The notes under the pieces were generated by a model, which had not been told where the DNA came from, did no database searches, and saw only the letters and a program-made list of their open reading frames with translations. 64,000 nucleotides of DNA from Flavobacteriaceae bacterium UBA1903. Lineage in GTDB: Bacteria > Bacteroidota > Bacteroidia > Flavobacteriales > Flavobacteriaceae. Positions 19,055-62,780 of this stretch are shown in pieces (positions within the stretch are counted from its first letter, which is position 1; each line of letters begins with the position of its first letter). Position numbers and translations under genes: made by a program. The stretch spans positions 293,935 through 357,934 of the forward strand of contig DDGL01000016.1 of NCBI GenBank assembly GCA_002337605.1. Direction: 5' to 3'.

Positions 19055-19188
19055 TTTGGTTAGTATGTTGCTCGGTAAATATAATAAATCACATAGATGA
19101 ATGCTTACGTATAAACCCTTAATTAGATGGATAACCATACATCCAATTTGCAGGTCGTTTAACTAATACATGTGGATGTTTCGATTAC

Positions 19189-23960: not shown

Positions 23961-24206
23961 TTCAGGTTGATTTGAGTCAACTTTATTGACAAGCTAACCA
24001 CCATTATTACTTCTATATCTTGCGCATCGCGGCGCATAGAATCTAACGTAGTTTCTGCCACAGGTCTTATTTAAATAAAAATAGATGTTTCTTTTTATGC
24101 TACGTACCAAATCTTACATAGTGTATAAGGCATTCTAGTTGTAGAATGACATATGTCATAACTTTGAAGTATACATTGTGCTATGTTTGTTCAATATGTA
24201 ACAAAC

Positions 24207-25977: not shown

Positions 25978-26020
25978 TAAATATACACTGATAGACTTGC
26001 AGCATCTATGATAAATATCA
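25978..26020 (-). promoter_or_regulatory. Crp/Fnr-type box + -7 element for the HMA gene
   Basis: TGATAAATATCA 26009-26020; TATATTTA starts 35 bp from the box start on the minus strand. Confidence 0.75.
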
Positions 26021-26031
26021 GTTTACTTAGC

Positions 26032-26074
26032 TGACTTATATCATTTTATCTTTAAAAATCGAAATCTATTTTTA
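26032..26074 (+). promoter_or_regulatory. Crp/Fnr-type box + -7 element for mlaEFD
   Basis: TGACTTATATCA 26032-26043; TATTTTTA at 26067 (+35). Confidence 0.75.
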
Positions 26075-26878: not shown

Positions 26879-26960
26879 AATGCACAATCACATACTTAAA
26901 ATCATTAAAAAATAATAAACAGGGCATTCCATCTTCCTATTTATCTAATAATATCTGCAG

Positions 26961-27698
26961 ATGAAAAAGCCCGTATTAGAAATAAAGGATTTACGCAAAA
27001 GTTTTGGCGACAACCACGTGTTACACGGTTTTAGCCTAAAGCTGTATAAAGGCGAGAATCTAGTGATTATGGGAAAGTCAGGTTCGGGGAAATCGGTAAT
27101 GATTAAATGTTTGGTGGGCTTGATGGCAGCCGATAGTGGCTCTATAAAAATTAAGGACTTTGATATCATTTCTCTGGGCAGAAAAGAACTGGATGTATTG
27201 CGAACTGAAATTGGTTTTCTCTTTCAGGGAAGTGCGCTGTATGATTCTATGACAGTTCGGGAAAATTTGGAGTTTCCCTTGCGCAGAAACAAAAACAAAA
27301 TTGATGGTTCGCAAACAACCGAAGCATTGGTACTCGAAGCCTTGGAAAATGTAGGTTTGGTACACGCCATAGATTTAATGCCAGCAGAGCTTTCTGGTGG
27401 GATGCAACGTCGTGTAGCATTGGCAAGAGCGCTGATATTGAAGCCAAAGATTATACTCTATGACGAACCCACCACAGGTCTTGACCCCATAACCTCGAAG
27501 GAAATTATTCAATTAATGCGCCGGATACAAGCCACATATAAAACATCATCACTTATCATTACTCACGATGTGGACTGCGCACGAGTGATTAGCAACCGAA
27601 TGATTTTATTGGTAGATGGAATAAACTATGCCGAAGGCACCTTTGAGGAACTTTCACAATCGCAAGACCCACAAGTAAAAGCCTTTTTTAAAACCTAA
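26961..27698 (+). CDS. mlaF: MlaF-family ABC ATPase
   Basis: 'GKSGSGKS', 'LSGGMQRRVALAR', 'LYDEPTTGLDP'. Confidence 0.9.
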   Translation: MKKPVLEIKDLRKSFGDNHVLHGFSLKLYKGENLVIMGKSGSGKSVMIKCLVGLMAADSGSIKIKDFDIISLGRKELDVLRTEIGFLFQGSALYDSMTVRENLEFPLRRNKNKIDGSQTTEALVLEALENVGLVHAIDLMPAELSGGMQRRVALARALILKPKIILYDEPTTGLDPITSKEIIQLMRRIQATYKTSSLIITHDVDCARVISNRMILLVDGINYAEGTFEELSQSQDPQVKAFFKT

Positions 27699-27703
27699 AG
27701 ATT

Positions 27704-28690
27704 ATGAAAAAATCAGCTTCCCATAAAACCCGAGTCGGATTGTTTGTTGTCGTTGGCACCCTATTGTTGGTGGCAGCACTCTATTTTATAGGTAATAGGC
27801 AACATATCTTTAGTAAGAATATGCAGGTGTATGCTGTTTTTCAGAATGTGAATGGCCTGCAATTAGGTAATAACGTTCGCTACTCTGGCATCAATGTAGG
27901 TACTGTTGGCAAAATTGAAATGGTCGATGAAGCCACCATAGTTGTGCAAATGATGGTGGAAGAAAAAACAGGCGCATTTATCAAGAGAGATGCGATAGCG
28001 ACCATTGGGTCAGATGGGTTGGTGGGAAGTATGGTGGTTAATATCCTTCCAGGGAAAGAAAATTTTTCCCAAATTAAATCTGGCGATACCATTCCTACCT
28101 ACAGCAAAATAGGTGCTGATGATATGCTATCAACCCTTAATGTAACTAACGAAAATGCGGCCTTGCTCACTTCAGACTTACTGAAAATTACTAATAAAAT
28201 CTTAGAAGGCGAAGGAGCCTTGGGAGCCCTTATCACAGATGCTACCTTAACTAAAGACATACGTGCCACCTTGACCAATCTAAAAAACACCACTAACGGC
28301 ACCAACCTATTAATTGCTTCCATAAATCGTAAGGTTTCAAAAATAGATATGGAAAATAGTGCGGCTGGAGTAGTGCTGAATGATACCCTTGTAGGCAATC
28401 AGATACAACGAATGGTATCTAATCTTGAAAAATCCAGTACTTCTATTTCGGAGACAACGAAGCAATTGGTAACTATTATTGCTGAGATTAATACGGCTGA
28501 AAGTACTTTCAATTACCTCACTAAGGATGAAACATTGCCAAAAACGATTGATTCCACAATGATAGAAATCAAAGAGGCTTCCCAAAAGTTGAATGAAAAT
28601 ATGGAAGCACTGAAACATAACTTTTTATTCAGAGGCTATTTTAGAAAACAAGAACGTGAAGCCAAGAAAAAAGATACATCTTCAAAATAA
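27704..28690 (+). CDS. mlaD: MlaD/MCE family protein
   Basis: 'NVNGLQLGNNVRYSGINVGTV', 'IGSDGLVG', helical C-terminus. Confidence 0.9.
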   Translation: MKKSASHKTRVGLFVVVGTLLLVAALYFIGNRQHIFSKNMQVYAVFQNVNGLQLGNNVRYSGINVGTVGKIEMVDEATIVVQMMVEEKTGAFIKRDAIATIGSDGLVGSMVVNILPGKENFSQIKSGDTIPTYSKIGADDMLSTLNVTNENAALLTSDLLKITNKILEGEGALGALITDATLTKDIRATLTNLKNTTNGTNLLIASINRKVSKIDMENSAAGVVLNDTLVGNQIQRMVSNLEKSSTSISETTKQLVTIIAEINTAESTFNYLTKDETLPKTIDSTMIEIKEASQKLNENMEALKHNFLFRGYFRKQEREAKKKDTSSK

Positions 28691-30879: not shown

Positions 30880-30922
30880 TGATAAATATCATAGTATTCC
30901 TAATACCATCCTACTACTTTTG
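30880..30922 (+). promoter_or_regulatory. Crp/Fnr-type box + -7 element for hpf-USP
   Basis: TGATAAATATCA 30880-30891; perfect TAnnTTTG (TACTTTTG) at 30915 (+35). Confidence 0.85.
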
Positions 30923-30941: not shown

Positions 30942-31253
30942 ATGACAATTAATATTCAATTTGTAAAGATGAAGACCAGCGAGAGCTTGGTTGCGTATGT
31001 GACCAAGAAACTTCAAAAATTAAATAAAAAATATAGCTGGGTTATTCGGGCAGATGTATTTTTCAAAATTGAAAATGATCCTACTGAAAAAGGACATATC
31101 TGTGAAATGGAACTCAGTTTACCCGGTCCTAAAATATTTGCTGTTTCTAATGAGAAAAATTATGAAATGGCCGTAAAGGAAACCATTAGCGACCTCGATA
31201 AGCAACTAAAAAAACGAAAAGCAAAATTCACGAAACAAAATATCTCATCATAA
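30942..31253 (+). CDS. hpf: Ribosome hibernation promoting factor (HPF/RaiA family)
   Basis: 'INIQFVKM..SESL..YV.KKL.KL', 'IFAVS...NYEMAV.ETI..L.KQL.KRK'. Confidence 0.85.
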   Translation: MTINIQFVKMKTSESLVAYVTKKLQKLNKKYSWVIRADVFFKIENDPTEKGHICEMELSLPGPKIFAVSNEKNYEMAVKETISDLDKQLKKRKAKFTKQNISS

Positions 31254-32087
31254 ATGAAAAAAATACTCATACCCGTAGACTTTTCAGAACACTCTGAATA
31301 TGCCCTTGAAGTAGGAGCAACATTAGCAAAAAAACACGATGCTACTTTAATTGTCCTTCATATGATGGGGCTTTCAGAAGCTGTATTGACCAAAAATGAA
31401 TCCCAAGAAATGTTTGAAGCCATTTATTATATGAAGTTGGCCGAAAAGCGCTTCAGTGATTTTTTGAATAAAGACTATCTTAAAGGGATTACCATAGAAA
31501 CCACCGTTCAAAATTATAAAGAGTTTCACGAAATAAACAGGGTCGCTGAAGATTTCGAAGCCGACTTGATTTTGATGGGCTCTCACGGCGCCAGCGGTCT
31601 CAAGGAAGTATTCGTTGGAAGCAATACCGAAAAGGTAGTGCGAACTTCAGACATTCCAGTGTTGGTAATTAAAAATCGTACCGAAGAATTTAAAATGCAA
31701 AAGGTAGTATTTGCCTGCGACTTTAATATGGATTTCACAGGGGCATTCAAAAAAGCCTGGGATTTTTTTGAGAAGATTGATGCAGAGTTTCAAGTGGTCT
31801 TTATTAATACTCCAGAGAAATTTTTGAGCAATCAAGAAATGCAGGAACGTGCTTTTAAATTTATGTTACATAGTGGCGTGGACAATACCGATGTGTATGA
31901 TAACACTGCATATTACTGCGACTATAGATTAGAACACGGTATTTTCAGTTTTAGTGACGAGGTGGATGCAGATATGGTGGTAATCCCAACCCACGGAAGA
32001 AGAGGGCTGGCCCATTTCTTTTCTGAAAATGTTGGCGAGGCTATCGTGAATCATAGTGAGTTGCCCATAATGACCTTTAAGGTCTAA
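31254..32087 (+). CDS. Universal stress protein (tandem USP)
   Basis: 'ILIPVDFS', 'MGSHGASG', 'GSNTEKVVR', 'PTHGRRG'. Confidence 0.92.
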   Translation: MKKILIPVDFSEHSEYALEVGATLAKKHDATLIVLHMMGLSEAVLTKNESQEMFEAIYYMKLAEKRFSDFLNKDYLKGITIETTVQNYKEFHEINRVAEDFEADLILMGSHGASGLKEVFVGSNTEKVVRTSDIPVLVIKNRTEEFKMQKVVFACDFNMDFTGAFKKAWDFFEKIDAEFQVVFINTPEKFLSNQEMQERAFKFMLHSGVDNTDVYDNTAYYCDYRLEHGIFSFSDEVDADMVVIPTHGRRGLAHFFSENVGEAIVNHSELPIMTFKV

Positions 32088-32142: not shown

Positions 32143-32598
32143 TTAAAACATACGCATCCTTCCGGTAATATCTTCAATACTGATGGTGAATACAATAGGG
32201 ATATCGTCCTTATAAATCTTGCTGGAAAACTGACTTATAAAGTCTAGGTCCAGTAGCTTTTTCCTTAGAATAAGGTCTTTTACACCCAATGAGAATTGAT
32301 GTAATAAGGCTTTAGCGGTGGAACCTTCCACTTCACTATAAGTGCCTTGAACCAAAACCGATTTCCAGTCATTGACCGAGTCAATATCGGTTACCGATAG
32401 TGATACTGCGTTATTTTTTCGCATTGCCTTAATCTTGTGTCCCATTGCCGAATAACCTATGATGTTATTTTTTTCTTCGTTGTAAAAATAAGTAATAGGT
32501 ACTACAAAAGACTTGCCTTGAAATAGATAGCCCAAACTCCCTATGTAGTTTGTACTAAGCAATAGGATTTTTTCTTTATCGTCTAAGGTCTTGATCAT
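32143..32598 (-). CDS. Pyridoxamine 5'-phosphate oxidase-like (split-barrel flavin-binding) protein
   Basis: 'IGSLGY', 'VVPITYFY', 'GHKIKAMRKN..VSL', 'WKSVLV.GTY.E'. Confidence 0.85.
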   Translation of the reverse strand: MIKTLDDKEKILLLSTNYIGSLGYLFQGKSFVVPITYFYNEEKNNIIGYSAMGHKIKAMRKNNAVSLSVTDIDSVNDWKSVLVQGTYSEVEGSTAKALLHQFSLGVKDLILRKKLLDLDFISQFSSKIYKDDIPIVFTISIEDITGRMRMF

Positions 32599-32621: not shown

Positions 32622-32664
32622 TAAAGATAGGGTGTTTCACTTGCTAAAATAATGATATTAATCA
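32622..32664 (-). promoter_or_regulatory. Crp/Fnr-type box + -7 element
   Basis: TGATATTAATCA 32653-32664; TATCTTTA at 35-bp offset on the minus strand. Confidence 0.75.
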
Positions 32665-35880: not shown

Positions 35881-36291
35881 TTATTCTTTAAATAAAAGTT
35901 CTAATCTAGTAAGCATTATTAATTCACTTTTATTACTGCCCCTAAAGGCATTTGCGATTTTTCGAGCTGTACGTATAATGAGCTCTTTTCTATTTCCGTA
36001 GAAACTATTTTTTTTGTCATTATAATAATCCTCAAAATCATTGTAGCAGTCCTGAGCATCCATTTGCTCATAATCAAACCACTCAAACACAATAGCCATC
36101 TGGTATGCGGCATCGGTACCAAATCTATCTTCGTAGTCATCCATACTTTTCCATTCGTCTTCCACCATTTTAGCCAATGCATCGTATTCTGACTTCCGTA
36201 CCACTCTGTCTGAGGCTGCCACAGCGTAAAAGAGTTCACCAATTTTTTGATAGAACAGTAACTCAGGTTTGCTTACTTTTTCCATTTTCAA
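35881..36291 (-). CDS. Hypothetical protein, TerB-like
   Basis: 'LFYAVAASDRVVRKSE', 'IANAFRG.NKSE'. Confidence 0.5.
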   Translation of the reverse strand: MKMEKVSKPELLFYQKIGELFYAVAASDRVVRKSEYDALAKMVEDEWKSMDDYEDRFGTDAAYQMAIVFEWFDYEQMDAQDCYNDFEDYYNDKKNSFYGNRKELIIRTARKIANAFRGSNKSELIMLTRLELLFKE

Positions 36292-36304: not shown

Positions 36305-36380
36305 TAAAACTACAGTTGCAATTTTGCACGTGCTATGATATTTATCAGTTAAAACTGTTATTATAAATTCGGTATTTTTA
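36305..36380. promoter_or_regulatory. Crp/Fnr-type box between divergent operons
   Basis: TGATATTTATCA 36336-36347; TAGTTTTA at 35-bp offset (minus); TATTTTTA at 36373 (+37) toward the kinase. Confidence 0.7.
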
Positions 36381-36384: not shown

Positions 36385-37902
36385 ATGGAAGTTTTTAAAA
36401 AAGGGAGCAATGTATTTAGGATTCTTTCGGAAGCTGTTTCTGAAGGAATCATATTTGTAAATCATCAACAAATTATAGTAGCCACAAACAAGGCTGCAAA
36501 TATGCTGTTTGGATATGCCGAAGAAGAACTTATAGGACAACATCTGGACATTTTAATTCCTGAAAAATACCACAGCGACCATCATAAGCACGTGAAGGGT
36601 TTTATGAAGGGTAGTGACAAAAGGCAAATGGGACACGGCCGAGATTTATATGGAAAGAGAAAAGATGGTTCTCAATTTCCAGTAGAAGTAGGACTCAACC
36701 CTTTTACTATTTACGAGAATGATTATGTGATGGCACTGGTCATAGATATATCTGTTAGGAAAAAGGCAGAGCAAGAGCTAAAGCATTGGGCAGAAATTTT
36801 TAATGAATCGCTCAACGAAATTTTTATTTTTGATGCAGCTTCACTAAAATTTCTGGATGTAAACAGAGGGGCACAAAGAAATATTGGGTTCTCACTGGAC
36901 GAATTGAGGGGGTTAACACCGGTAGATATAAAACCTGATTTTGATGAAGTAACTTTCCACAATACAATTGAACCTTTACTTAATGGGGAAAAAGAAAAGT
37001 TGAAATTTAATACTACCCATCAACGTAAAGATGGAAGCACTTATCCTGTAGAGGTGCATTTACAGAAAACTGTGAGAGACAATAAAGACACATTGGTAGC
37101 CATAATATTGGATATTACCGAGCGTGTCGAATACACAGATAAGCTGGAGAAAGAAGTTGTAGAACGCACACGACAGTTGCAAGATGCCCTTGCTAAAGAA
37201 AAAGAACTGGGCGAACTGAAAACTAAATTCCTATCGCTGGTTTCCCACGAATTTAAAACACCTTTGAGTGGAATTTTGACTTCTGCCACCTTAGCTGGAA
37301 AATATACAAAGACAGACCAACAGGAAAAGCGGGACAAGCATCTTAAAACTATTACCAGTAAAGTAAAATATCTCAATAATATTATCAATGATTTTCTTTC
37401 TATTGAACGGCTGGAAAGTGGAAATGTAAACTACAAATTTTCCACTTTCCCCTTGAGTAAAGTGGTAAACGAAGTTATTTATGATGCCAATATGTTACTT
37501 AAAGAAGGACAATCCATAGCGTATCCTGAGGGCATAGATAATATTGTAGTAGATTTTGATGAAAAAATATTAGAGCTGGTCTTGACCAACTTAATTAATA
37601 ACGCAATAAAATATTCTTCAGAGCACACCACGATAAAGATAGTTGCCGAGATTATTGATGATAAACTAAAAGTTATGATTTCTGATGAAGGAATTGGAAT
37701 TCCTAAAGAAGAACAAAAATATATTTTTAACCGATACTTTAGGGCAGAAAACGCCCTTTTGGACCAAGGAACAGGAATTGGACTTAACATAGTAAAGACC
37801 CACTTGGAGAAGTTAGGAGGCACTATTACCTTTAGAAGTATTGAAAATGAGGGATCCACCTTTGCCATTACCGTCCCATTAAATATCGAAAATAAATTAT
37901 GA
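36385..37902 (+). CDS. Cytoplasmic two-PAS sensor histidine kinase (FixL-like first PAS)
   Basis: PAS1 'LFGY..EELIGQ..ILIP.KY..DHHKH....RQMGHGRDLYGKRKDGSQFPVE'; H-box 'SHEFKTPL'; N/G boxes; no TM. Confidence 0.88.
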   Translation: MEVFKKGSNVFRILSEAVSEGIIFVNHQQIIVATNKAANMLFGYAEEELIGQHLDILIPEKYHSDHHKHVKGFMKGSDKRQMGHGRDLYGKRKDGSQFPVEVGLNPFTIYENDYVMALVIDISVRKKAEQELKHWAEIFNESLNEIFIFDAASLKFLDVNRGAQRNIGFSLDELRGLTPVDIKPDFDEVTFHNTIEPLLNGEKEKLKFNTTHQRKDGSTYPVEVHLQKTVRDNKDTLVAIILDITERVEYTDKLEKEVVERTRQLQDALAKEKELGELKTKFLSLVSHEFKTPLSGILTSATLAGKYTKTDQQEKRDKHLKTITSKVKYLNNIINDFLSIERLESGNVNYKFSTFPLSKVVNEVIYDANMLLKEGQSIAYPEGIDNIVVDFDEKILELVLTNLINNAIKYSSEHTTIKIVAEIIDDKLKVMISDEGIGIPKEEQKYIFNRYFRAENALLDQGTGIGLNIVKTHLEKLGGTITFRSIENEGSTFAITVPLNIENKL

Positions 37903-38945
37903 GAACCATCCTATTAATAGAAGACGATACCGCCTTACGTGAGAATACTGCAGAACTTTTAGAACTTGCCGATTATGATGTGTTAACTGCTCCAAATGGT
38001 AGGATTGGCATTGATATGGCCAAAGATAATATCCCGAACATCATTGTGTGCGATATTATGATGCCAGAAATAGATGGTTATGGAGTTTTGGAAGCCTTGT
38101 CTATAGACGAGAAGACTACACATATACCTTTTATCTTCTTATCTGCTAAGACGGAACACAAAGAGATACGAAAGGGGATGGATCTTGGGGCCGATGATTA
38201 CCTTACGAAACCTTTTGAAGAAGAAGAGCTGATGAGTGCCATTGAAAGTAGATTAGCTAAAGCAGAAATTTTAGCAAAATCAATACCTCCGGTTTCTAAA
38301 ACAAAAGAGGATGAAGGTGGACTCAGAGACTTAAATGAACTCAAAAACTTCTTTGATGACAATGGTGTAGTTTCAACTTATACACCTGGCGAAAAAATTT
38401 ATGATGAATGGTCACACTCAAATACGGTGTATCTTATTTTAAAAGGAACTGTAAAATGTTTTAAGCTGGATGATGGAAAAGAACTCATTACCGCACTTTA
38501 CAAAGCAGATGATTTTTTAGGATTTACCTCTTTTGAAAAAAGCATGTTACATCAAGAATCTGCTGTAGCTATAGACAATGTAGAATTGGCTGGAATTTCT
38601 AAAAATGAATTAAAAGAAATTCTAACTAAGAATAAAGAAGTTTCTCTTGCCTTAGTAAATGTTTTGAGCGATACTGTTTCTGAGATTAAAGAACAGCTTT
38701 TACAAATGGCGTACAGCTCGGTACGTAAAAAAACGGCCCAAACTATTTTACAATTTTCACAAATCCTCAATAAAAAACCAGACGAGGCCATTAAGATTTC
38801 ACGAGCAGATCTGGCAAGTGTTGCGGGAATAGCCACAGAAAGTTTGATACGTACCTTATCTGAATTCAAAAAGAAAAATCTCATTGAGATAGAAGGGCGC
38901 AATATTACGATCCGAAACTTGGAAGCGCTGGAGATGATGGTGTAA
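37899..38945 (+). CDS. Response regulator: REC + cNMP-binding-like + Crp-type HTH
   Basis: 'LIEDD', 'CDIMMP', 'LSAK', 'TKPF'; C-terminal 'ISRADLASVAGIATESLIRTLSEFK'. Confidence 0.9.
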   Translation: MRTILLIEDDTALRENTAELLELADYDVLTAPNGRIGIDMAKDNIPNIIVCDIMMPEIDGYGVLEALSIDEKTTHIPFIFLSAKTEHKEIRKGMDLGADDYLTKPFEEEELMSAIESRLAKAEILAKSIPPVSKTKEDEGGLRDLNELKNFFDDNGVVSTYTPGEKIYDEWSHSNTVYLILKGTVKCFKLDDGKELITALYKADDFLGFTSFEKSMLHQESAVAIDNVELAGISKNELKEILTKNKEVSLALVNVLSDTVSEIKEQLLQMAYSSVRKKTAQTILQFSQILNKKPDEAIKISRADLASVAGIATESLIRTLSEFKKKNLIEIEGRNITIRNLEALEMMV

Positions 38946-38959: not shown

Positions 38960-39002
38960 TGACAATTGTCATTCTTTACTGGATAGCTCCCCAATACATT
39001 TG
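38960..39002 (+). promoter_or_regulatory. Crp/Fnr-type box + -7 element for USP
   Basis: Perfect palindrome TGACAATTGTCA 38960-38971; TACATTTG at 38995 (+35). Confidence 0.85.
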
Positions 39003-39019: not shown

Positions 39020-39856
39020 ATGCAACATATTTTAATTCCTACAGATTATTCCCTAAACGCTTGGAATGCTCTCGAGTATGCGTTTCAGTTTTTTAGTAAA
39101 CAACGGGTAACATTTCATTTAATTCACGTTGAGACTTCCCACGCTATACTCCAAGATGAAAATCTACATACATCGGGCTTCCTTTCCTTGAATGAAATAG
39201 ATAGCGAATTGCAAGATGAAATGGCTACGTTGCTGGAGCAAGCAAGTAGTAAAAAAGGGAGCAAAAATCATAGAATTGTCGCTTCTGTGGTTAAAGGGCG
39301 CTTTATCGAGCGCATCCGTGAATATGTAATAACCAATACCATAGATTTAATAATAATGGGCACCAAGGGAGCTTCTGGTATAAAAGAAATGACCGTAGGA
39401 AGTAGCGCAGGAGCAGTTATTACCAAGGTTAAATGTCCAGTTTTGGTCATTCCGGAAGAAGCTACTTATACGCCTCCAATAAATATTGGGTTCCCTACAG
39501 ATTTTAACATTCCCTACACCAATAAGGTGCTACGTATTTTGCTAAGTATGGCAAAAACCCATAAATCAATGGTCAAAGCGCTTAGGGTTGCACAAAATCA
39601 ACAACCCTTAAACGCTTTTCAAAATACCAATAGGGTGTATTTAAAGGATCAACTTGCTGAAATAGATCATAGCTTTCACGTAGTAGAAGATACTAATCTG
39701 GAAGATGCACTACAGTCTTTTATTAGTTCTTTCAAAATCGATATGGTGGTAATGATAGCAAAAAGCCTCAATCTTTTCCAACGTATTTTATTTAATCCCC
39801 GTGTCAAAAAGATAAGCTATCACACCCGGATACCTTTCTTAGTTTTACACGAATAA
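39020..39856 (+). CDS. Universal stress protein
   Basis: 'ILIPTDYS', 'IMGTKGASG'. Confidence 0.9.
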   Translation: MQHILIPTDYSLNAWNALEYAFQFFSKQRVTFHLIHVETSHAILQDENLHTSGFLSLNEIDSELQDEMATLLEQASSKKGSKNHRIVASVVKGRFIERIREYVITNTIDLIIMGTKGASGIKEMTVGSSAGAVITKVKCPVLVIPEEATYTPPINIGFPTDFNIPYTNKVLRILLSMAKTHKSMVKALRVAQNQQPLNAFQNTNRVYLKDQLAEIDHSFHVVEDTNLEDALQSFISSFKIDMVVMIAKSLNLFQRILFNPRVKKISYHTRIPFLVLHE

Positions 39857-39900: not shown

Positions 39901-39943
39901 TGATAAATATCATTTTATAAGGGTGTTTCTCATAGTAGATTTG
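39901..39943 (+). promoter_or_regulatory. Crp/Fnr-type box + -7 element for the USP trio
   Basis: TGATAAATATCA 39901-39912; TAGATTTG at 39936 (+35). Confidence 0.85.
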
Positions 39944-39965: not shown

Positions 39966-40811
39966 ATGAGAACCATCATCATTCCTACCGATTTTTCTGA
40001 AACAGCCGAAAATGCCATCCGCTATGCGGTGGAGCTTTTTAAGTATGAAAAGAGTGAGTTCATTATAATGAATGCATTTGCAGATGAGGTTTATAAAAAT
40101 ACGGTTGAAATGGATCGTGATTTTTTTGAAGAGTACAAACAGAAGAGTGAGGAAGCTACCGAAAGAGCATTGCAAAAAGTGATTGCCAAAATATTGGAAA
40201 TCTCGCCAAATCCAAAACATACCTATTACTACGAAGCGAGTTTTGGCAGCTTGGTAGATGAGGTTAACGATTTGGCGAACAAGCACAACGCAGATATTAT
40301 TGTAATGGGTACCCAAGGAAAATCCAATAAGGACGATGTTACTTTTGGTAGCCAGACACTTCAGGTAATTAAATATGTTAGTTGTCCGGTTTTAGCGGTT
40401 CCTGTTGGTTTTCACGGGTATCCCCCAGAAAATATACTATTCCCTACAGATTATATGCTTCCATTCAAGCAAAGGGAGCTAAAGCTTATCAATACTATGG
40501 CAAAACGATTTGTAACGATGGTTCATTTTCTTCATATATCCAATGCAAAGGAGCTAACACACAGGCAAAATGACAACAAAGTATTTGCTTCCTGCTGTTT
40601 CGACGATGTTAAGACTTCTTACATAAAAGCACCTGGCGAAGACATTACAGCTGTCGTAAACAAGACTTTGAAAGAAACCGCTATAGATATGCTTGTTATG
40701 GTAAACCATAGGCATTCTTATTTGGAGAACATTCTGTATCGCTCCACCATCGAAAAAATAGGTTTGGAAATAGAAATACCTTTTTTGGTCCTTCAAAATC
40801 TACCACGATGA
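39966..40811 (+). CDS. Universal stress protein
   Basis: 'IIIPTDFS', 'VMGTQG', 'FGSQT'. Confidence 0.9.
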   Translation: MRTIIIPTDFSETAENAIRYAVELFKYEKSEFIIMNAFADEVYKNTVEMDRDFFEEYKQKSEEATERALQKVIAKILEISPNPKHTYYYEASFGSLVDEVNDLANKHNADIIVMGTQGKSNKDDVTFGSQTLQVIKYVSCPVLAVPVGFHGYPPENILFPTDYMLPFKQRELKLINTMAKRFVTMVHFLHISNAKELTHRQNDNKVFASCCFDDVKTSYIKAPGEDITAVVNKTLKETAIDMLVMVNHRHSYLENILYRSTIEKIGLEIEIPFLVLQNLPR

Positions 40812-40840
40812 CCAAACGCATAACTTAAAATTTGACCACT

Positions 40841-41689
40841 ATGAAACGAATATTATTACCCACAGATTTTTCAGAAAATGCATACAACGCTATAGCGTAT
40901 GCGCTTCAGTTATATAAAAATGAAATTTGCGAATTCTATTTGCTACATACCTATACCCCAGCCTTTGTAAGTGCAGGTAGTATGATAGATAGCTATTCTG
41001 CATTAACGCTTCAAAAAGTGGCCCAAGAGAATGCCGAGAATAGATTAAATGCTCTGAAAGAAAAACTCGATGATAATTTCAAGAACTCCAAGCACAACTT
41101 TACAACCGTAGCGAGCTTTAATATGCTCATTTCTGAAATGAAGCGAATAACCGAAGAAAATGCTATTGACCTTCTGATAATGGGTACGCAAGGTGCTACT
41201 GGTGCCAAAGAGATATTTCTTGGCACGCATACAATGTATGCCATTAAAAATATGAAAATACCTGTGTTGGCAGTTCCAGCTAATTTTAGTTACGAAGAAC
41301 CTAAAGAAATACTTTTTCCTACAGATTTTAAAGTGCAGAAAGATAATCGTTATCTGGATTTAATTAAAGAAATATGCGAAACACACATATCAAGATTACA
41401 TATTCTTAACGCCTATTACGGTACTCCGCTAAGTGACGAACAAAAAGGAACGAAGGAGTTTTTGGACATTTTTTTTGGCGCAAATGCACATCTATTTCAT
41501 ATTGCTGAAGGAACCGACGTGTTGGGAGCAGTTGAGAAATTTCAGATAAAGAATAAAATCAATTTTATGGTTATGGTTCATAATAAACATAGCTTTTTAG
41601 AGAATATCCTTTTTAAGCCAGTGATCAATCAAGTTGTGTACCATACCAACGTTCCATTTTTGGTAATCCCTTCCATAGAAAGGCAATAA
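40841..41689 (+). CDS. Universal stress protein
   Basis: 'ILLPTDFS', 'IMGTQGATG'; start taken at the ATG of MKRILL. Confidence 0.9.
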   Translation: MKRILLPTDFSENAYNAIAYALQLYKNEICEFYLLHTYTPAFVSAGSMIDSYSALTLQKVAQENAENRLNALKEKLDDNFKNSKHNFTTVASFNMLISEMKRITEENAIDLLIMGTQGATGAKEIFLGTHTMYAIKNMKIPVLAVPANFSYEEPKEILFPTDFKVQKDNRYLDLIKEICETHISRLHILNAYYGTPLSDEQKGTKEFLDIFFGANAHLFHIAEGTDVLGAVEKFQIKNKINFMVMVHNKHSFLENILFKPVINQVVYHTNVPFLVIPSIERQ

Positions 41690-41700: not shown

Positions 41701-42549
41701 ATGAAGACAATACTTGTACCCACAGATTTTTCTAAAAATGCATATTGTGCATTGCACTATGCAACACAACTCTTTTCAAATGAAACGTGTAAATTTATTA
41801 TTCTACACTCTTTTGAAAATCAAGTCAGTAATCTTACCAGCAGGGTTGATATTGGTAAAACAGAAGCCGTTGTTGATGAACTTTATAACACCTATGAAAA
41901 CAAATGTGATGCAGTGATGCACACCATCGTAAGGGATAATCCAAACGATGAACATACGTATAAAACCATTGCAACTTCAATAAGTTTAGCCAGAGCCATC
42001 AATAGATTGGTGGTCAAGGAAAATGTAAACTTCGTGGTAATGGGCAGCAAGGGGGCTACGGGAGCCGCGTCGGTTTTTATGGGTAGCAACACCCTACGGA
42101 TGATTAAAAAAATTAAAAATGCACCCTTATTAATTGTCCCTCAGAAATTAGATTTCACGCCCATAAAAAAGATAGTATTTACTACCGGATTTAAGCGAGC
42201 CTATACCGCTGAAGAGTTACAACCTTTAATAACTATTGGAGAAGGTCAGAATGCAATTGTAAAAGTTGCGTATATTCACGAAAAGGAAAAAATGACAGAA
42301 AGTCAACGGGAGCACCTACACCAACTATTTGATATACTAAACCCCTTGAAACCAGAATTACATTGGTTACACGAAACTACAGATAAGTATGATGCTGTAA
42401 CTTCATACATCAATAAAGAAAATGTAGAGATGCTGGCAATGGTCTATTACAAGCATAACTTTTTTGTCTCTCTTTTTCGTGAGGCTGTGGTAAAAAATAT
42501 AGCCGAACATAGCGCAGTACCATTTTTGATTCTTCCATCCAAGAGCTGA
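41701..42549 (+). CDS. Universal stress protein
   Basis: 'ILVPTDFS', 'VMGSKGATG', 'MGSNT'. Confidence 0.9.
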   Translation: MKTILVPTDFSKNAYCALHYATQLFSNETCKFIILHSFENQVSNLTSRVDIGKTEAVVDELYNTYENKCDAVMHTIVRDNPNDEHTYKTIATSISLARAINRLVVKENVNFVVMGSKGATGAASVFMGSNTLRMIKKIKNAPLLIVPQKLDFTPIKKIVFTTGFKRAYTAEELQPLITIGEGQNAIVKVAYIHEKEKMTESQREHLHQLFDILNPLKPELHWLHETTDKYDAVTSYINKENVEMLAMVYYKHNFFVSLFREAVVKNIAEHSAVPFLILPSKS

Positions 42550-42589
42550 TATATATCATAGTTGTTGCCATCGTACCGTGTTATTTTTA
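42547..42589 (+). promoter_or_regulatory. Crp/Fnr-type box + -7 element for USP/ATP-cone/MBL operon
   Basis: Perfect palindrome TGATATATATCA 42547-42558 (overlaps the upstream TGA stop); TATTTTTA at 42582 (+35). Confidence 0.8.
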
Positions 42590-42615: not shown

Positions 42616-43467
42616 ATGAAAAAGAAGATATTATTACCCACAGATTTCTCGAAGAATGCTTGGAATGCACTTCGTTATGCAAGTGAGTTGTACAAAAACG
42701 AAGAAGTAGATTTTTATCTACTCAATGCGTTTACGACAAACAATTTCGCTCTGGACAATATGATGGTGCCAGAACCTGGCGAGCAATGGTATGAGCAAGC
42801 AAAAACACGCTCAGAAACTTCAATCAAAAAATTGCTGAAGGATATTGAAGCACTGGAAGTTCCGTCAAACCATACCTACTTTACAAAGTCTGTCTTCAAT
42901 ACACCTCTCGAAGCGGTAAAGGCTTTTGTAGAAGACAAAGACATTGATATCGTCATTGCATCTACCAAGGGAGAAACAGATGATGTAGATACCATAATGG
43001 GAAGCAACAGTATCGATTTTATGGAAAAAGTGCGTAACTGCCCTGTATTTATGATTCCTGCAAATGTTTCTTTTAAAGAGCCCAATGAAATTGTATTTCC
43101 TACAAGTTTCAAGACACACTATAAGCGTAGAGAACTGAACTATTTACGTGAAATCGCTAAAATTACTAATGCACCCATTAGGATTTTACACGTTTCGAAA
43201 GAAGATAAACTTTCTGATGAACAGAAAGAGAAAAGGGCATTACTCGAAGAGTGTTTTGAGGGATTGAAATATACCTTTCATACACTTGAAAATACCAGTG
43301 TGCAAACAGGACTTAATGTATTTGTGCAAAGCCGTAATAGTGAAATGATTGCCTTTGTAAATAAAAAGCACAACTTTTTCGGCTCTGTTTTTTCAAGGCC
43401 AATGGTTAAGGATTTAGGGTTTAACGCCAAGGTGCCGGTATTAGCATTGCACGATCTACGTAATTGA
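42616..43467 (+). CDS. Universal stress protein
   Basis: 'ILLPTDFS', 'STKGET', 'MGSNS'. Confidence 0.9.
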   Translation: MKKKILLPTDFSKNAWNALRYASELYKNEEVDFYLLNAFTTNNFALDNMMVPEPGEQWYEQAKTRSETSIKKLLKDIEALEVPSNHTYFTKSVFNTPLEAVKAFVEDKDIDIVIASTKGETDDVDTIMGSNSIDFMEKVRNCPVFMIPANVSFKEPNEIVFPTSFKTHYKRRELNYLREIAKITNAPIRILHVSKEDKLSDEQKEKRALLEECFEGLKYTFHTLENTSVQTGLNVFVQSRNSEMIAFVNKKHNFFGSVFSRPMVKDLGFNAKVPVLALHDLRN

Positions 43468-43470: not shown

Positions 43471-44307
43471 ATGAAAAAGGAAAACTTTAAAATTATAAAG
43501 TCGTCTGGTGACAAAGTAGATTTCTCTATTTCAAAATTAAGAAACAGTCTATACCGAAGTGGAGCCGATGAAGCTACCGTTGACAATATCATCAACGTGG
43601 TTCGTGATGAATTGTACCAAGGTATTTCTACCAAGGAAATCTACAATAGGGCATTTGCGATGTTGAAAAAAAGCAAATCCATCTATGCTTCCAAGTACAA
43701 GTTGAAAAAGGCCATATACGAATTGGGCCCTACAGGATTTCCGTTTGAGAATTTCATAGGTGCGTTGTTGGAATATTCGGGATATCAAGTAGAAGTGGGT
43801 AAGATTATGCAGGGCAAATGCGTATCTCACGAAGTGGATGTTATAGCTTCAAAAAATGGACAGCATATTGTAGCCGAGTGTAAATTTCACAGTGAGAAAA
43901 CAACCACCTGTAATGTAAAAATTCCTCTGTATATCAATTCGCGATATCGAGATATTGTCGAGCAATATAAAAACACTTCCAAATGCCCTAACGAGGGCTG
44001 GGTAGTTACCAATACCCGTTTTACAGCAGATGCACTTACTTATGGAAAATGTGTAGGCCTTCATTTACTAAGTTGGGATTATCCCAAAGAAAATGGGCTA
44101 AAAGACCGTATTGATAGGTTGGGTTTATACCCAATCACAGTTTCAACGTTGCTGACAAACAGGGAAAAGCAATTTTTATTAAGTAGGGATATTGTTTTGT
44201 GCCGACAATTAGCAAATGACGTCTTTTATCTGGACCACTTGGGAATTTCTGAAAACCGAAAATCCAAGATTCTTTCTGAAATTTCAATGTTGTGTAACTT
44301 TAAGTAA
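43471..44307 (+). CDS. ATP-cone + Mrr-like restriction endonuclease domain protein
   Basis: N-terminal 'IIKSSGDKVDFSISKLRNSL' ATP-cone; 'FENFIGALL', 'HEVDVIA', 'VAECKFH', 'VVTNTRFT.DA'. Confidence 0.8.
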   Translation: MKKENFKIIKSSGDKVDFSISKLRNSLYRSGADEATVDNIINVVRDELYQGISTKEIYNRAFAMLKKSKSIYASKYKLKKAIYELGPTGFPFENFIGALLEYSGYQVEVGKIMQGKCVSHEVDVIASKNGQHIVAECKFHSEKTTTCNVKIPLYINSRYRDIVEQYKNTSKCPNEGWVVTNTRFTADALTYGKCVGLHLLSWDYPKENGLKDRIDRLGLYPITVSTLLTNREKQFLLSRDIVLCRQLANDVFYLDHLGISENRKSKILSEISMLCNFK

Positions 44308-44308
44308 A

Positions 44309-45679
44309 ATGAATACATTAAAAATTCATTTTTTAGGTGCTTCAGGAACTGTGACAGGATCCAAATTTTTATTGGAAACACCCGAACGGAATATCCTGAT
44401 TGATTGTGGAATGTTTCAGGGGCTAAAAGAGCTTCGCGAACAAAACTGGAAGGAATTGCCCTTTGACGTTTCAAGGATAGATACCGTTTTGTTAACCCAC
44501 GGCCACTTAGATCATACAGGCTATTTGCCCAGATTGGTCAAACAAGGATTTACGGGTAAAATCTTTGGTACTGCACCTACATTGGAAATCACTAAAATCA
44601 TATTACTGGACAGCGCAAAAATAAACGAAGAAGATGCAGAACGTGCTAATGAGGAAAGTTACTCTAAACACCAACCGGCATTACCTTTTTATACGGTGGA
44701 AGATGCAGAACGCACCATCAAAATGTTTGTACCAGCAGAAAAAGATGCTTGGCATTCGTTTTCGGAAAATTGCAGATATCGATTTAAGTATAATGGTCAT
44801 ATCATTGGTGCTACTTTTATTGAATTAGAATTGTACGGAAAAACGTTTGTTTTTTCTGGCGATGTTGGTCGAAAGGAAGACCTTTTATTGTTCCCTCCAG
44901 AGAAACCCCAAGGGGCAGATTATCTCTTCTTAGAAAGTACCTACGGCGGAAAATTACATCCAGCCGAAGGTGTTTCCGACAAATTGATTGCACTCATCAA
45001 CAAAACGGTACACAATCGTGGAACATTGATTATCCCTTCTTTTGCCGTAGAACGCTTACAAACCTTGATGTTCTTACTTTGGGAATTATATAATGAAAGA
45101 CGTATTCCAAATATTCCCATCTTTATAGATAGTCCAATGGGAAACAACGTTCTGGGTGTTTTTGAACGTTTTGCAAGTTGGCATAAAATCCCGCAAGCAG
45201 AATTCAGCGCAATGAAACACCGTATGAATAGTATTAAATCCTATAAGGAAACCTGGGAAACCATAGACGACCCACGACCAAAAATAGTGATTGCTGGTAG
45301 TGGTATGGTCACAGGAGGTCGTGTGCTAACCTATATGAAACAATTAATTGATGAGCCAACTACCACCATTTTAATGGTAGGCTATCAAGCTGAAGGCACC
45401 CGTGGGAGACAATTATTGGAGGGTGCACACGAATTAAGATTCTTCGGAAAGTATTATCCAGTAAAAGCTACTGTTGAGCACATTGAAAGTCTTTCTGCAC
45501 ACGCAGACCAAAACGGGATATTAGATTGGTTGAGCGAAATTAAAAACGTTCCCGAAAACACCTTTTTAATTCACGGCGAGCTCACTGCTTTGGATGCGCT
45601 TCGAGTGAAGATCCAGGATGTGTATGGTTGGAGGGTCACCCTCCCAAAGTTGTATAGTACAGTAGAAGTTTCGATTTAA
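44309..45679 (+). CDS. MBL-fold beta-CASP ribonuclease-like protein
   Basis: 'LTHGHLDHTG', 'FSGDVGR', 'ESTYG', 'SAHAD'; start taken at MNTLK. Confidence 0.88.
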   Translation: MNTLKIHFLGASGTVTGSKFLLETPERNILIDCGMFQGLKELREQNWKELPFDVSRIDTVLLTHGHLDHTGYLPRLVKQGFTGKIFGTAPTLEITKIILLDSAKINEEDAERANEESYSKHQPALPFYTVEDAERTIKMFVPAEKDAWHSFSENCRYRFKYNGHIIGATFIELELYGKTFVFSGDVGRKEDLLLFPPEKPQGADYLFLESTYGGKLHPAEGVSDKLIALINKTVHNRGTLIIPSFAVERLQTLMFLLWELYNERRIPNIPIFIDSPMGNNVLGVFERFASWHKIPQAEFSAMKHRMNSIKSYKETWETIDDPRPKIVIAGSGMVTGGRVLTYMKQLIDEPTTTILMVGYQAEGTRGRQLLEGAHELRFFGKYYPVKATVEHIESLSAHADQNGILDWLSEIKNVPENTFLIHGELTALDALRVKIQDVYGWRVTLPKLYSTVEVSI

Positions 45680-46063: not shown

Positions 46064-46522
46064 TTACGATTCCACAACTATTTCGGTTTCCAACGTTACT
46101 TTAGATTTTATAGAATTAGAAATTAAACAAGCCACTTCAGATTTCTGAACGATGCGTTTGGCTCGGTCAATATCCTTTTCGTTTTTAATGGTAACGGTGG
46201 GTTTCAGGATGATTTTGGTCATTAAAAACTTTCCGTTTTCTTTCTCCAATATTCCTTCCGATTTGCAACCGAAGCTTGAAAACTCCAATTTTGAGTTTTC
46301 GGCAATGGCCAAAAAAGTGGTCATAAGGCAACTAACTACTGAGGCGGTGAACAAATGTTCTGGCGACCATATATGGGGCATTCCCTTCGGGAACTCTGGT
46401 GGGGTTGCAACCTCTATACAATTGGAAGTTGTATTGTCTCCTTGTATTAATTCTGGTGAGCACAATAAACCCTTGCGTTCATTGCTCCACTTTATATCAA
46501 CGTTAAATTGATGTTTTTCCAT
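46064..46522 (-). CDS. OsmC family protein
   Basis: 'PPEFPKG', 'WSPEHLF..SVVSCLMTTF', 'CLISNS'. Confidence 0.88.
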   Translation of the reverse strand: MEKHQFNVDIKWSNERKGLLCSPELIQGDNTTSNCIEVATPPEFPKGMPHIWSPEHLFTASVVSCLMTTFLAIAENSKLEFSSFGCKSEGILEKENGKFLMTKIILKPTVTIKNEKDIDRAKRIVQKSEVACLISNSIKSKVTLETEIVVES

Positions 46523-46547: not shown

Positions 46548-46621
46548 CAAAATTAGCTCGTTAGTTATTCTTAGTAAATGACATATATCATTTTTCACTG
46601 GCATTTTTCAAACTATTTTAG
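46548..46621. promoter_or_regulatory. Single Crp/Fnr-type box serving two divergent promoters
   Basis: TGACATATATCA 46579-46590; TAATTTTG at 35-bp offset (minus) and TATTTTAG at 46614 (+35). Confidence 0.8.
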
Positions 46622-47455: not shown

Positions 47456-47498
47456 TGATAATTATCATTTCCAGCACATTGACACTGAGGTATTTTTA
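47456..47498 (+). promoter_or_regulatory. Crp/Fnr-type box + -7 element for hsp20
   Basis: Perfect palindrome TGATAATTATCA 47456-47467; TATTTTTA at 47491 (+35). Confidence 0.8.
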
Positions 47499-47538: not shown

Positions 47539-47985
47539 ATGTCTTTAGTAAAATTCAACAGAAGAAGAGTTCCCTGGATAAACGACGGGATAGCAAATTG
47601 GTTTGATACCGACGGTTTTTTTTCAGATGAGTTTTTCGCAAGAAAAGCCAACTTGCCTGCAATGAACATCAAGGAAAACCCAGAAAATTTTGAAGTTGAA
47701 CTTGCGGTACCAGGTTTCTCAAAGAAGGATATTGAGGTGTCCTTAGAGAATGATATACTGCACGTATGTGCAGAAAATCGCAAAGAAGAAGTAGAAGAAA
47801 ATCAAGAGGGCTATACGCGAAAGGAATTTAGTTACAACTCGTTCGACCGTAAACTTCAAATTCCTACGTCGGTAAATCAGGAGAAAGAAGTAAAAGCTAC
47901 CTACAAAAACGGGGTGCTAAAACTGGAGCTTGCTAAAAGCGAAGCTGCCGTGGAGCCGCCTAAAAAAATGATTGAGATAGCTTAA
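47539..47985 (+). CDS. Hsp20/alpha-crystallin small heat-shock protein
   Basis: 'LPAMNIKE', 'LAVPGFSKKDI', 'SFDRKLQIP', 'ATYKNGVL'. Confidence 0.92.
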   Translation: MSLVKFNRRRVPWINDGIANWFDTDGFFSDEFFARKANLPAMNIKENPENFEVELAVPGFSKKDIEVSLENDILHVCAENRKEEVEENQEGYTRKEFSYNSFDRKLQIPTSVNQEKEVKATYKNGVLKLELAKSEAAVEPPKKMIEIA

Positions 47986-48000
47986 ACCTCTTAATTGAAG

Positions 48001-48042
48001 AGGCAGAAAGCTGGCAGTGAGGTGCTGTTCTCTGCCTTTTTT
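48001..48042 (+). terminator. Probable intrinsic terminator after hsp20
   Basis: AGGCAGA...TCTGCCT stem followed by a T tract. Confidence 0.55.
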
Positions 48043-48054
48043 AAAAGTCCTTTT

Positions 48055-48492
48055 ATGAATACCACAACTCATTTTAAATATATAGAATGGCGCAATACGA
48101 AAGGATTGCACGAAGATTCAATAAATGCCATTTCCGATCTTATGTTTCTAAAAGACGAGTTACATTTTCTAAAAGATCTGGTAGCAGAACACACACTGGA
48201 ACTCATGTATGGAAAGTCTCACGAAGAAGCTGTTAAGATAGGTATAGCTCTTCACACCCTTGATGACAGATTGAAGAATTTATTAAAAGACCTTGTGGTA
48301 CACTCGAACAATTTGAAGGTGTTAACAGATGATATTGATGTTCCCAACGAATTGCAAGACTACAAGAATGTACACTACAAATTAATGGTAGAGGCGATGG
48401 ATTTTCATACAGACCTAAAGAAAACCAAGCGAATCATTTTTGAGATGATGGCGGATATAATGAAAAAGAGCAAGCAAAAGAAACTGTCCTAA
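48055..48492 (+). CDS. Hypothetical four-helix-bundle-like protein
   Basis: 'LMFLKDELHFLKDL', 'HSNNL', 'HYKL'; start taken at MNTTT. Confidence 0.65.
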   Translation: MNTTTHFKYIEWRNTKGLHEDSINAISDLMFLKDELHFLKDLVAEHTLELMYGKSHEEAVKIGIALHTLDDRLKNLLKDLVVHSNNLKVLTDDIDVPNELQDYKNVHYKLMVEAMDFHTDLKKTKRIIFEMMADIMKKSKQKKLS

Positions 48493-48505
48493 CTTTTATC
48501 TAAAA

Positions 48506-48943: not shown

Positions 48944-48962
48944 TCTTTTAAAACGTAGTATT

Positions 48963-49601: not shown

Positions 49602-49606
49602 TCAAG

Positions 49607-59901: not shown

Positions 59902-59976
59902 CAAATTTAGATGAGATACTAAGGGTAAAAGATGACTTTTGTCATATTTCGGACAATTTTATCTTTTTTATATTTG
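59902..59976. promoter_or_regulatory. Single Crp/Fnr-type box serving the nos operon and the rrf2 operon
   Basis: TGACTTTTGTCA 59933-59944; TAAATTTG at 35-bp offset (minus), TATATTTG at 59969 (+36). Confidence 0.85.
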
Positions 59977-62605: not shown

Positions 62606-62648
62606 TAAAATTAAACCGGCTGCCTTGAAAATTTTATGACTTATGTCA
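62606..62648 (-). promoter_or_regulatory. Crp/Fnr-type box + -7 element
   Basis: TGACTTATGTCA 62637-62648; TAATTTTA at 35-bp offset on the minus strand. Confidence 0.8.
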
Positions 62649-62737
62649 GCAAATCGATATTTCCTATTAAGAAGTATCGTGATTTAATAAATGGATGTCT
62701 TTTCAGAATCTCGTGATAGCATCAAAATAATTTAGAC

Positions 62738-62780
62738 TGACTTAAATCATCTTTTTTATGCAACAGGTCTCATAATTTTG
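62738..62780 (+). promoter_or_regulatory. Crp/Fnr-type box + -7 element
   Basis: TGACTTAAATCA 62738-62749; TAATTTTG at 62773 (+35). Confidence 0.85.

Follow-up and report, generated by a model that had tools for sequence, protein, structure and literature searches.

Introduction

In the FixL-FixJ-FixK cascade of rhizobia and Caulobacter, the haem-PAS histidine kinase FixL acts on FixJ, a receiver joined to a LuxR-type helix-turn-helix (HTH), and FixJ in turn drives transcription of fixK. The final activator, FixK, belongs to the FNR class but has no iron-sulphur (Fe-S) cluster. Here we analyzed a 64,000-nucleotide stretch of DNA (hereafter the window) from the marine flavobacterium Flavobacteriaceae bacterium UBA1903, which contains a two-gene switch made of a histidine kinase gene (36385..37902, plus strand, 505 aa) and a hybrid regulator gene (37899..38945, plus strand, 348 aa). 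The kinase carries the same proximal His and distal Arg as FixL, the regulator ends in an FNR/FixK-class module without an Fe-S cluster, and both systems are associated with a TGA-N-TCA palindrome centred near -41.5 and with cbb3 oxidase genes (fixNOQP and fixGHIS in the Fix system) and hemN. We consider it likely that the pair is a conserved flavobacterial two-component low-oxygen switch that acts through these box promoters.

The differences from the Fix cascade are also clear. FixJ is absent from this system, and with it the FixJ to fixK transcription step; the receiver is instead fused to the FixK-like module, which reduces three proteins to two. The box lacks the outer T and A of TTGAT-N4-ATCAA, it is combined with a Bacteroidota -7 element, and the regulon is dominated by universal stress protein (USP) genes. 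Because the partner of the kinase is not FixJ (its output matches Pfam cNMP_binding and HTH_Crp_2), the pair falls outside the FixLJ family.

The regulator also resembles FNR of Escherichia coli and ANR of Pseudomonas. In its DNA-binding module, E and R occupy the FNR positions and CRP R180 is not matched by an Arg; its boxes have class II geometry, and its regulon includes low-oxygen respiratory genes (hemN, cbb3 and denitrification). Whereas FNR and ANR are triggered by the assembly of a [4Fe-4S] cluster, the proposed trigger here is phosphorylation of the receiver; the hybrid lacks the FNR cysteines, while a four-Cys FNR analogue coexists in the genome. DosS/DosT-DosR (DevR) of Mycobacterium tuberculosis and OsdR of Streptomyces likewise use a haem-based kinase to drive a response regulator, and DosR-type regulons contain USP genes, alpha-crystallin-type Hsp20, PNPOx/nitroreductase-like proteins and ribosome hibernation functions in hypoxia. 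However, the DosS/DosT sensors are haem-GAF proteins, DosR is a NarL/LuxR-type regulator with another box, and neither GAF nor GerE is found by Pfam in the pair described here. The resemblance to DosR thus lies in regulon content and logic only, with no homology of sensor fold or output. The first PAS domain (PAS1) of the kinase aligns over its whole length with the haem domain of E. coli DosP (EcDOS), His77 and Arg97 included, although the output of DosP is a cyclic di-GMP phosphodiesterase and DosP Met95 corresponds to a non-conserved residue, His84, in PAS1.

Receiver-Crp proteins are present as an architecture in domain databases and in response-regulator censuses. An experimental study of the kinase-regulator pair was not found in a full-text literature search, in which no response-regulator census was consulted. 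What is new here is the presence of a second, putatively Fe-S-type reader and the additive co-occurrence of the promoters with both regulators.

Results

A conserved kinase-regulator gene pair

The open reading frames (ORFs) of kinase and regulator share four nucleotides (ATGA), and the regulator is translationally coupled to the kinase. ORF calls placed both genes, with their overlap, where the first-pass annotation of this DNA had put them. We surveyed 80 related loci from many genera; in every one, the gene immediately preceding the regulator gene encodes the kinase. PAS1 is kept in all orthologous kinases; the second PAS domain (PAS2) is absent from about half of them, those of approximately 410 aa.

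Two surveys measured the spread of the hybrid regulator. It was found in 72 of 151 Flavobacteriaceae genera, each represented by one genome, and in 41 of 301 genomes sampled over Bacteroidota, several other families included. The closest named homologue is from Patiriisocius hiemis (85% identity), and the source genome was placed close to Patiriisocius and Rasiella within the Flavobacteriaceae. In the regulator search, 7,962 of the 8,000 candidate protein clusters scored had E <= 1e-10. All 120 candidates listed have the same three Pfam domains, and among them the database names are merely "response regulator" or "CRP-like". In some genera (G015 C16, G029 C4, G041 C22 and G054 C97), a further receiver-Crp paralogue, diverged to 42-49% identity, lies 15-25 kb away from the first.

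The hybrid regulator contains a receiver and a complete FNR/FixK-class module

The regulator consists of a receiver, a flexible linker and an FNR/FixK-class module (Pfam Response_reg, cNMP_binding and HTH_Crp_2), all encoded on the plus strand. The receiver (aa 4-116, 37908..38246, Pfam 1.7e-26) has D52 (38052-38054) as its predicted phospho-acceptor. Residues E8, D9, D10, D52, S82 and K104, which form a complete receiver acceptor set, are invariant; conservation in the regulator was counted over 30 to 81 orthologues. The FixJ profile covers the receiver alone (positions 6-127 of 203).

Over their full length, the last 200 residues align with the structures of CRP, FNR and FixK2. They include a cyclic-nucleotide-binding-like beta-barrel (aa 160-245, 38376..38633, Pfam cNMP_binding) and a Crp-type HTH (aa 280-345, 38736..38933, Pfam HTH_Crp_2). 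The recognition helix ATESLIR (aa 312-318, 38832-38852) is invariant in 81 orthologues. In the CRP alignment, E314 corresponds to CRP E181 and R318 to CRP R185, and T313 replaces CRP R180, which is the FNR/FixK pattern. According to the same alignment the barrel has no cAMP site: of the CRP residues that bind the cAMP phosphate (E72, R82 and S83), R82 is replaced by an invariant E220, and the CRP Gly-Glu72 is Gly-Phe. Control by cAMP was therefore ruled out by the Glu at the R82 position. The protein contains C51 and C187 as its only cysteines and has no Fe-S cysteine cluster. Without an Fe-S site the hybrid does not count as FNR proper, and without a cAMP site it does not count as CRP proper. 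By sequence comparison, it is an orthodox receiver fused to a complete FNR/FixK-class module without either site. The first-pass annotation had described an intact acceptor pocket (EDD, here E8-D10, with D and K), a cNMP-like domain with a Crp HTH whose helix reads TESLIR (residues 313-318) with E and R as in FNR, and the lack of an FNR cysteine cluster; each of these features was recovered.

An AlphaFold2 model of the regulator had a predicted local distance difference test score (pLDDT) of 79 with confident domains, and a secondary structure that fits the CRP/FNR fold of barrel, long dimerization helix and C-terminal HTH. Its predicted template modelling score was 0.50. The inter-domain linker (aa 129-140, 38283..38318), about 12 residues within a poorly conserved stretch of about 20, had pLDDT below 50 and is predicted to be disordered. 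From these two values, no fixed packing between the receiver and the FNR module is predicted.

PAS1 belongs to the FixL/DosP class of haem-PAS domains

The kinase has the order PAS1-PAS2-HisKA-HATPase_c (Pfam PAS, PAS, HisKA and HATPase_c). Its highest Kyte-Doolittle mean over 19 residues is 1.0; no membrane segment is predicted, in agreement with the earlier description of a soluble kinase. PAS2 (aa 146-248, 36820..37128, plus strand, Pfam PAS_4) is the variable domain. The kinase core (37219..37884, plus strand, Pfam) comprises HisKA (aa 279-346) and HATPase_c (aa 392-500), and the H-box HEFKTPL places the predicted phosphorylation site at H288 (37246-37248, plus strand) by motif position.

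PAS1 (aa 14-132, 36424..36780, plus strand) was assigned from PDB sequence matches, the NCBIfam FixL profile and Foldseek. When residues 1-142 were compared with all PDB sequences, the best 13 matches were FixL or DosP/EcDOS haem domains only (E 1e-16 to 3e-12), and the NCBIfam FixL model matched PAS1 at its haem-PAS positions 122-246. H66 (36580-36582, plus strand) aligns with the proximal His of RmFixL, BjFixL (H200) and DosP (His77) and is invariant in the 32 orthologues over which PAS1 conservation was counted. R86 (36640-36642, plus strand) aligns with the distal Arg of BjFixL (R220) and DosP (Arg97) and is kept in at least 90% of them. The His-Arg gap is 20 residues here (H66-R86) as in BjFixL (H200-R220). 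R80 and M82 are invariant, and G83 and G85 are present in at least 90% of the orthologues. An AlphaFold2 model of PAS1, built on the orthologue alignment, had pLDDT 84. Foldseek with this model returned FixL (8js5, 1drm) and EcDOS (1s66, 1vb6) at the top, followed by LOV domains; query-normalized template modelling scores against the best FixL/EcDOS folds were 0.66-0.82. A LOV-type photoreceptor was ruled out, because the kinase contains no Cys and LOV-type photochemistry is thereby excluded. These sequence and model comparisons place PAS1 in the FixL/DosP class of haem-PAS domains, and haem binding by PAS1 is, on the same grounds, well supported but not proven.

The segment DHHKH (D65-H69) had been noted as the FixL-type proximal His region, and it does contain the aligned, invariant H66. 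For the segment GHGR (G83-R86), which had been read as the distal site, the Arg held up as aligned and conserved; the His did not. This residue, H84 (36634-36636), aligns with the distal ligand Met95 of EcDOS, and its position is occupied by H, R, K, Q, A, S, G or L in the orthologues. It is unlikely from this alignment that H84 serves as a conserved sixth haem ligand.

Boxes stand at a fixed distance from the -7 element

The box motif is TGAY-N4-RTCA with an AT-rich spacer; the outer T and A are not conserved. The window contains 24 such boxes, against 4.25 +/- 2.1 expected, and none of 100 shuffles reached 24. Eighteen of them are intergenic. The strict pattern TTGAT-N4-ATCAA, which the first-pass annotation had cited for the rhizobial promoters, has a single match, within a gene, where 0.27 would be expected; this is no more than chance. 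It was dropped as the motif.

In the 80 loci, the Bacteroidota -7 element TAnnTTT[GA] begins exactly 35 nucleotides after the box start for 448 of 601 boxes, and at offset 36 for 33 more. The same 35-nucleotide spacing is found within the window. In Flavobacterium psychrophilum the sigma-A -7 box covers -12 to -5 (PMC9723704). With the element at these positions, an offset of 35 puts the box centre at -41.5. This is the class II position of CRP and FNR activators, and the box promoters have class II geometry.

Counting the box alone, with an AT spacer, across the 151 genomes proved uninformative, since the reversed-pattern control was about equally frequent in these AT-rich genomes. For this reason the composite pattern of box, N23 and TANNTTTR was used instead; its reversed-pattern control gave 0 to 3 matches per strand. 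The source genome has 19 composite promoters, 18 of which lie inside a 62-kb island (C12:318081-380188), 15 of them in the window. The sole composite promoter outside the island (C14:127207) looks like a chance match. We also considered TGAT and TGAC half-sites as subtypes for different regulators. This idea was discarded, as both occur at the conserved kinase-upstream site and in single-regulator genomes.

A second candidate reader and the co-occurrence of promoters with both regulators

The one other strong Crp-family protein of the genome is a stand-alone FNR-like regulator of 232 aa, encoded 1.5 kb past the window end (C12:359467-360162, minus strand; L017:2464-3165). It has four invariant cysteines, C8, C11, C57 and C110, which include a C-x2-C, a barrel Cys and the counterpart of FNR C122. 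Its helix TATELLIR has the recognition residues of the hybrid helix IATESLIR. The four invariant cysteines and the helix make it a plausible Fe-S FNR analogue for the same half-site, and it very probably reads the same promoter class in this genome. A box directly before its gene, sought as a sign of a FixK-like cascade, was not found, and such a cascade onto the FNR-like gene was rejected. A box with one mismatch (TGACAAAAGTCG, L017:3587-3598) lies about 69 nucleotides before the hemerythrin gene that adjoins the FNR-like gene.

The FNR-like protein is found in 95 of the 151 genera, independently of the hybrid; the two show no positive association across genera and are adjacent in some genomes. 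The median number of composite promoters was 1 in the 23 genomes with neither regulator, 14 in the 33 with the hybrid only, 10 in the 56 with the FNR-like protein only, and 23 in the 39 with both. All contrasts between medians had P < 2e-4 (Mann-Whitney, no phylogenetic correction). Among the genomes with neither regulator, those of 2.9 to 3.6 Mb have 0 to 3 promoters; exceptions reach 7 to 9, in genomes of 73 to 87% completeness. Over the 151 genera, promoter number thus tracks the hybrid and, independently and additively, the FNR-like protein. The co-occurrence of regulator and boxes that had been put forward at the first pass is borne out by the medians of 14 with the hybrid only and 1 with neither.

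The targets in single-regulator genomes are also informative. Where the FNR-like protein stands alone, boxes precede hemN, ccoS, nos cytochrome c, one or two USP genes, and also pyruvate formate-lyase-like and nadA-like genes, the last two named by N-terminal sequence only. Where the hybrid stands alone, boxes precede hemN, ccoS-cbb3, nos cytochrome c, nadA, mlaE, USP genes and a gene for a 136-aa protein; hybrid-only genomes G114 and G037, for example, have boxes before hemN, ccoS, nos cytochrome c, nadA and USP genes. In a genome of the same genus as ours (G096), an FNR-like orthologue was not found, and all 17 promoters lie within 72 kb of the hybrid. In another hybrid-only genome (G057), which has 10 promoters, a single further Crp-family protein was found, and its helix differs (TSRVVISR). 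Since hybrid-only genomes keep the promoters of classical FNR targets, the hybrid alone suffices for a genome to have the whole class of promoters, these targets included. The earlier proposal that the hybrid reads the boxes therefore needs to be divided: from the co-occurrence and its helix the hybrid very probably reads them, but it is not the sole candidate, with the FNR-like protein also present.

A box shared by the kinase gene and a divergent gene

The box TGATATTTATCA (36336..36347) lies between the kinase gene and a divergent gene and appears to serve both promoters. Pattern matching found a minus-strand -7 element, TAGTTTTA (36305-36312), at offset 35 from this box and a plus-strand element, TATTTTTA (36373-36380), at offset 37. 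The 250 bp upstream of the kinase gene hold a box in 71 of the 80 loci. Of the loci, 54 carry a box within 80 bp. On the divergent side, 48 of these have the -7 element at offset 35; on the kinase side, 33 have it at offset 36 (one also has another at 41) and 6, the window included, at offset 37. With this kinase-side spacing, the transcription start would fall on the A of the kinase ATG, and a leaderless kinase mRNA is predicted.

The divergent gene (35881..36291, minus strand) encodes a conserved 136-aa protein and would be driven by the shared box; in 66 of the 80 loci, a homologue stands behind a box promoter. The protein has no Pfam match up to E = 1. A homologue also stands behind a box in a genome with the FNR-like protein only (L106).

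Genes of the island

The island combines low-oxygen and dormancy genes. The window contains nine tandem-USP genes, five of which are directly box-driven (39020, 39966, 42616, 62805, and 31254 downstream of the hibernation factor gene). The box TGACAATTGTCA (38960..38971, plus strand), 15 nucleotides past the regulator stop, is in the promoter of the first (39020-39856, Pfam USP). The box at 39901..39912 (plus strand) serves the USP genes at 39966-40811, 40832-41689 and 41701-42549 (Pfam Usp), the latter two lying downstream of 39966. The next box (42547..42558, plus strand) is in the promoter of a USP gene (42616-43467) followed by ATP-cone/Mrr and beta-CASP genes (Pfam). In this last stretch (43471-45679, plus strand), at the end of the USP array, a gene with an ATP-cone and an Mrr-type nuclease domain overlaps a beta-CASP/RMMBL ribonuclease gene, and both may belong to the same stress operon.

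The other genes with composite promoters encode Hsp20, a ribosome hibernation factor, OsmC, two PNPOx-like proteins, MlaEFD, a TauE-family exporter and the cytochrome c/nosZ operon. At the left edge of the island, a composite pattern (box 24147..24158, plus strand) marks the promoter of the TauE-family exporter gene (24183-24935). It follows shortly after a defence-type region (4917-23552, minus strand) that encodes the R subunit of a type I restriction system (16685-19138) and two NTPases of the KAP family (8935-11667 and 19189-21132). Two boxes (26009 and 26032, spanning 26009..26043) were found by box and promoter search before mlaEFD (26096-28690) and the opposite-strand gene 25691-25960. 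The hibernation factor gene (30942-31253, Pfam Ribosomal_S30AE 4e-17) has a box at 30880..30891 (plus strand) and is followed by a USP gene (31254-32087, Pfam Usp); a hibernation factor gene behind a box and ahead of a USP gene is found in the same order in two single-regulator genomes (L128 and L168). Composite patterns also mark the promoters of a PNPOx-like gene (32143-32598, box 32653..32664, minus strand) and of the Hsp20 operon (47539-50596, box 47456..47467, plus strand), whose last gene encodes a 2-hydroxyacid dehydrogenase. The box at 46579..46590 lies between the OsmC gene (46064-46522, minus strand) and a gene for a 137-aa protein at 46637 (plus strand), with a strict -7 element on the OsmC side. 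A further box (59933..59944) separates the cytochrome c/fasciclin/nosZ operon (minus strand, 51.6-59.8 kb) from Rrf2-ScdA (plus strand, 59995-61203), with a strict promoter on the cytochrome c side. Towards the right end (62637..62749), composite patterns place box 62637 before the second PNPOx-like gene (62129-62584, minus strand) and box 62738 before a USP gene (62805-63638, plus strand).

Beyond the window, composite promoters precede ccoS-ccoNO and hemN. Rrf2-ScdA and fixI have a box with looser spacing, or none was found. Two small box-driven ORFs, 25691-25960 (minus strand, 89 aa, Pfam HMA domain) and 61735-61986 (minus strand, 83 aa, no Pfam match and HMA-like by eye only), may encode metal chaperones for cbb3 or NosZ maturation.

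Discussion

In Flavobacterium psychrophilum, oxygen limitation strongly induces the cbb3 oxidase and haem-biosynthesis genes; the regulator was not named (PMC9723704). This induction in a flavobacterium and the FixL-type sensor together point to low oxygen as the most probable signal and to activation as the most probable mode of action. The hybrid pair very probably turns on the 62-kb island of low-oxygen and dormancy genes. In the mechanism that we propose, falling O2 would leave PAS1 in the deoxy-haem form and release kinase activity, as in FixL, and the phosphoryl group of H288 would be handed to D52. The phosphorylated receiver would then dimerize or stop masking the FNR module, and the regulator would bind the boxes and recruit RNA polymerase. 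It would also feed back on its own, predicted leaderless, operon and on the divergent 136-aa gene. Through the hybrid and the FNR-like protein, signals from haem and from an Fe-S oxygen sensor would converge on the island.

Several observations weigh against this reading or limit it. The kinase-side -7 element stands at offset 36 or 37 and not at 35, which makes autoregulation less certain than control of the divergent gene. The distal Arg is missing from a few orthologous kinases, and the His of GHGR is not conserved. The co-occurrence test used one genome per genus and was not phylogeny-corrected, and a Crp-family protein of 195 aa whose helix has the E-x3-R pattern is also present in two of the hybrid-only genomes (G006 and G037). 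Because the hybrid and the FNR-like protein share their key residues, it is not possible to say for this genome which of the two reads a given box; here, ownership of the boxes is probably shared between the two. NO-related genes (Rrf2, ScdA and nosZ) lie in the island, which makes nitric oxide (NO) a possible main ligand in place of O2.

This last point leads to a view in which the pair works as described but the PAS1 haem senses NO, carbon monoxide (CO) or redox state, in the manner of DosS/DosT or of NO-responsive haem sensors. With NO-related genes inside the island, NO or CO are possible ligands: besides nosZ, it contains an NsrR-type Rrf2, ScdA/RIC and hemerythrin, FixL haem domains bind NO and CO too (PDB 1dp8 and 1lsv are among the fold matches), and an Fe-S sensor of O2, the FNR-like protein, is already nearby. 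We nevertheless regard it as unlikely, because the distal Arg that stabilizes bound O2 in FixL and DosP is conserved and because, in hybrid-only genomes, the pair is the only visible candidate controller of hemN and cbb3, which are classic O2-limitation genes. That PAS1 binds no haem at all, and that a small molecule or a protein is the signal with another role for the His and Arg, appears very unlikely. Sequence cannot give haem binding with certainty, LOV domains are also near in fold, and BjFixL R206 is unmatched in PAS1, which has Gly at that position and Lys one residue earlier. Yet all of the best 13 PDB sequence matches are haem-PAS proteins, the His is invariant with the FixL spacing to the Arg, and the lack of Cys excludes LOV-type photochemistry.

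The boxes of this genome might also be read essentially by the four-Cys FNR-like protein, with the hybrid controlling something else or few USP promoters. Its cysteines and TATELLIR helix, the median of 10 composite promoters, before hemN, ccoS, pfl and nos genes, in genomes that have it alone, and the boxes before fixI, ccoS and hemN that adjoin its gene here are in agreement with this. It is quite unlikely, however, given that hybrid-only genomes have a median of 14 promoters with hemN, ccoS and nos included, that the same-genus genome has a complete 17-promoter island without an FNR-like orthologue, that promoter counts are additive where both regulators are present, and that the hybrid helix is invariant with the same E and R. 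Finally, the direction of signalling is not deducible from sequence, and a site at -41.5 overlaps the region of a would-be -33 element. The regulator could on this basis be a repressor, or active when unphosphorylated, with boxes occupied in air and freed in hypoxia. This we consider hardly credible: the fixed -41.5 geometry with no evident need for a -33 element is the established signature of class II activation by CRP and FNR, and the target genes are induced, not repressed, by O2 limitation in flavobacteria and other bacteria.

On the reading that the kinase and the hybrid regulator form a low-oxygen switch, we lean, by a modest preference, towards a wider view of the Flavobacteriaceae. 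One promoter class would be served by two interchangeable oxygen front ends, an Fe-S FNR analogue and a haem-PAS kinase with a receiver-FNR fusion. Phosphorylation would replace cAMP or the Fe-S cluster as the trigger of a CRP-fold protein, and the regulon would be convergent with the mycobacterial DosR dormancy programme. If this is true, the phosphorylation-triggered CRP-fold activator represents a response-regulator output class that has not yet been studied, and the mechanistic question is then by what means phosphorylation of the receiver switches a dimer of the CRP fold. From the additive pattern seen with two regulators, deletions are expected to have different effects in single- and double-regulator species.

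Flavobacteriaceae are major degraders of marine organic matter and live on oxygen-poor particles. The pair is a concrete and widespread candidate for their oxygen regulator, with a bearing on N2O reduction by nosZ and on low-oxygen survival. If the proposal is correct, the USP arrays, Hsp20 and the hibernation factor would be a convergent counterpart of DosR dormancy in abundant marine heterotrophs.

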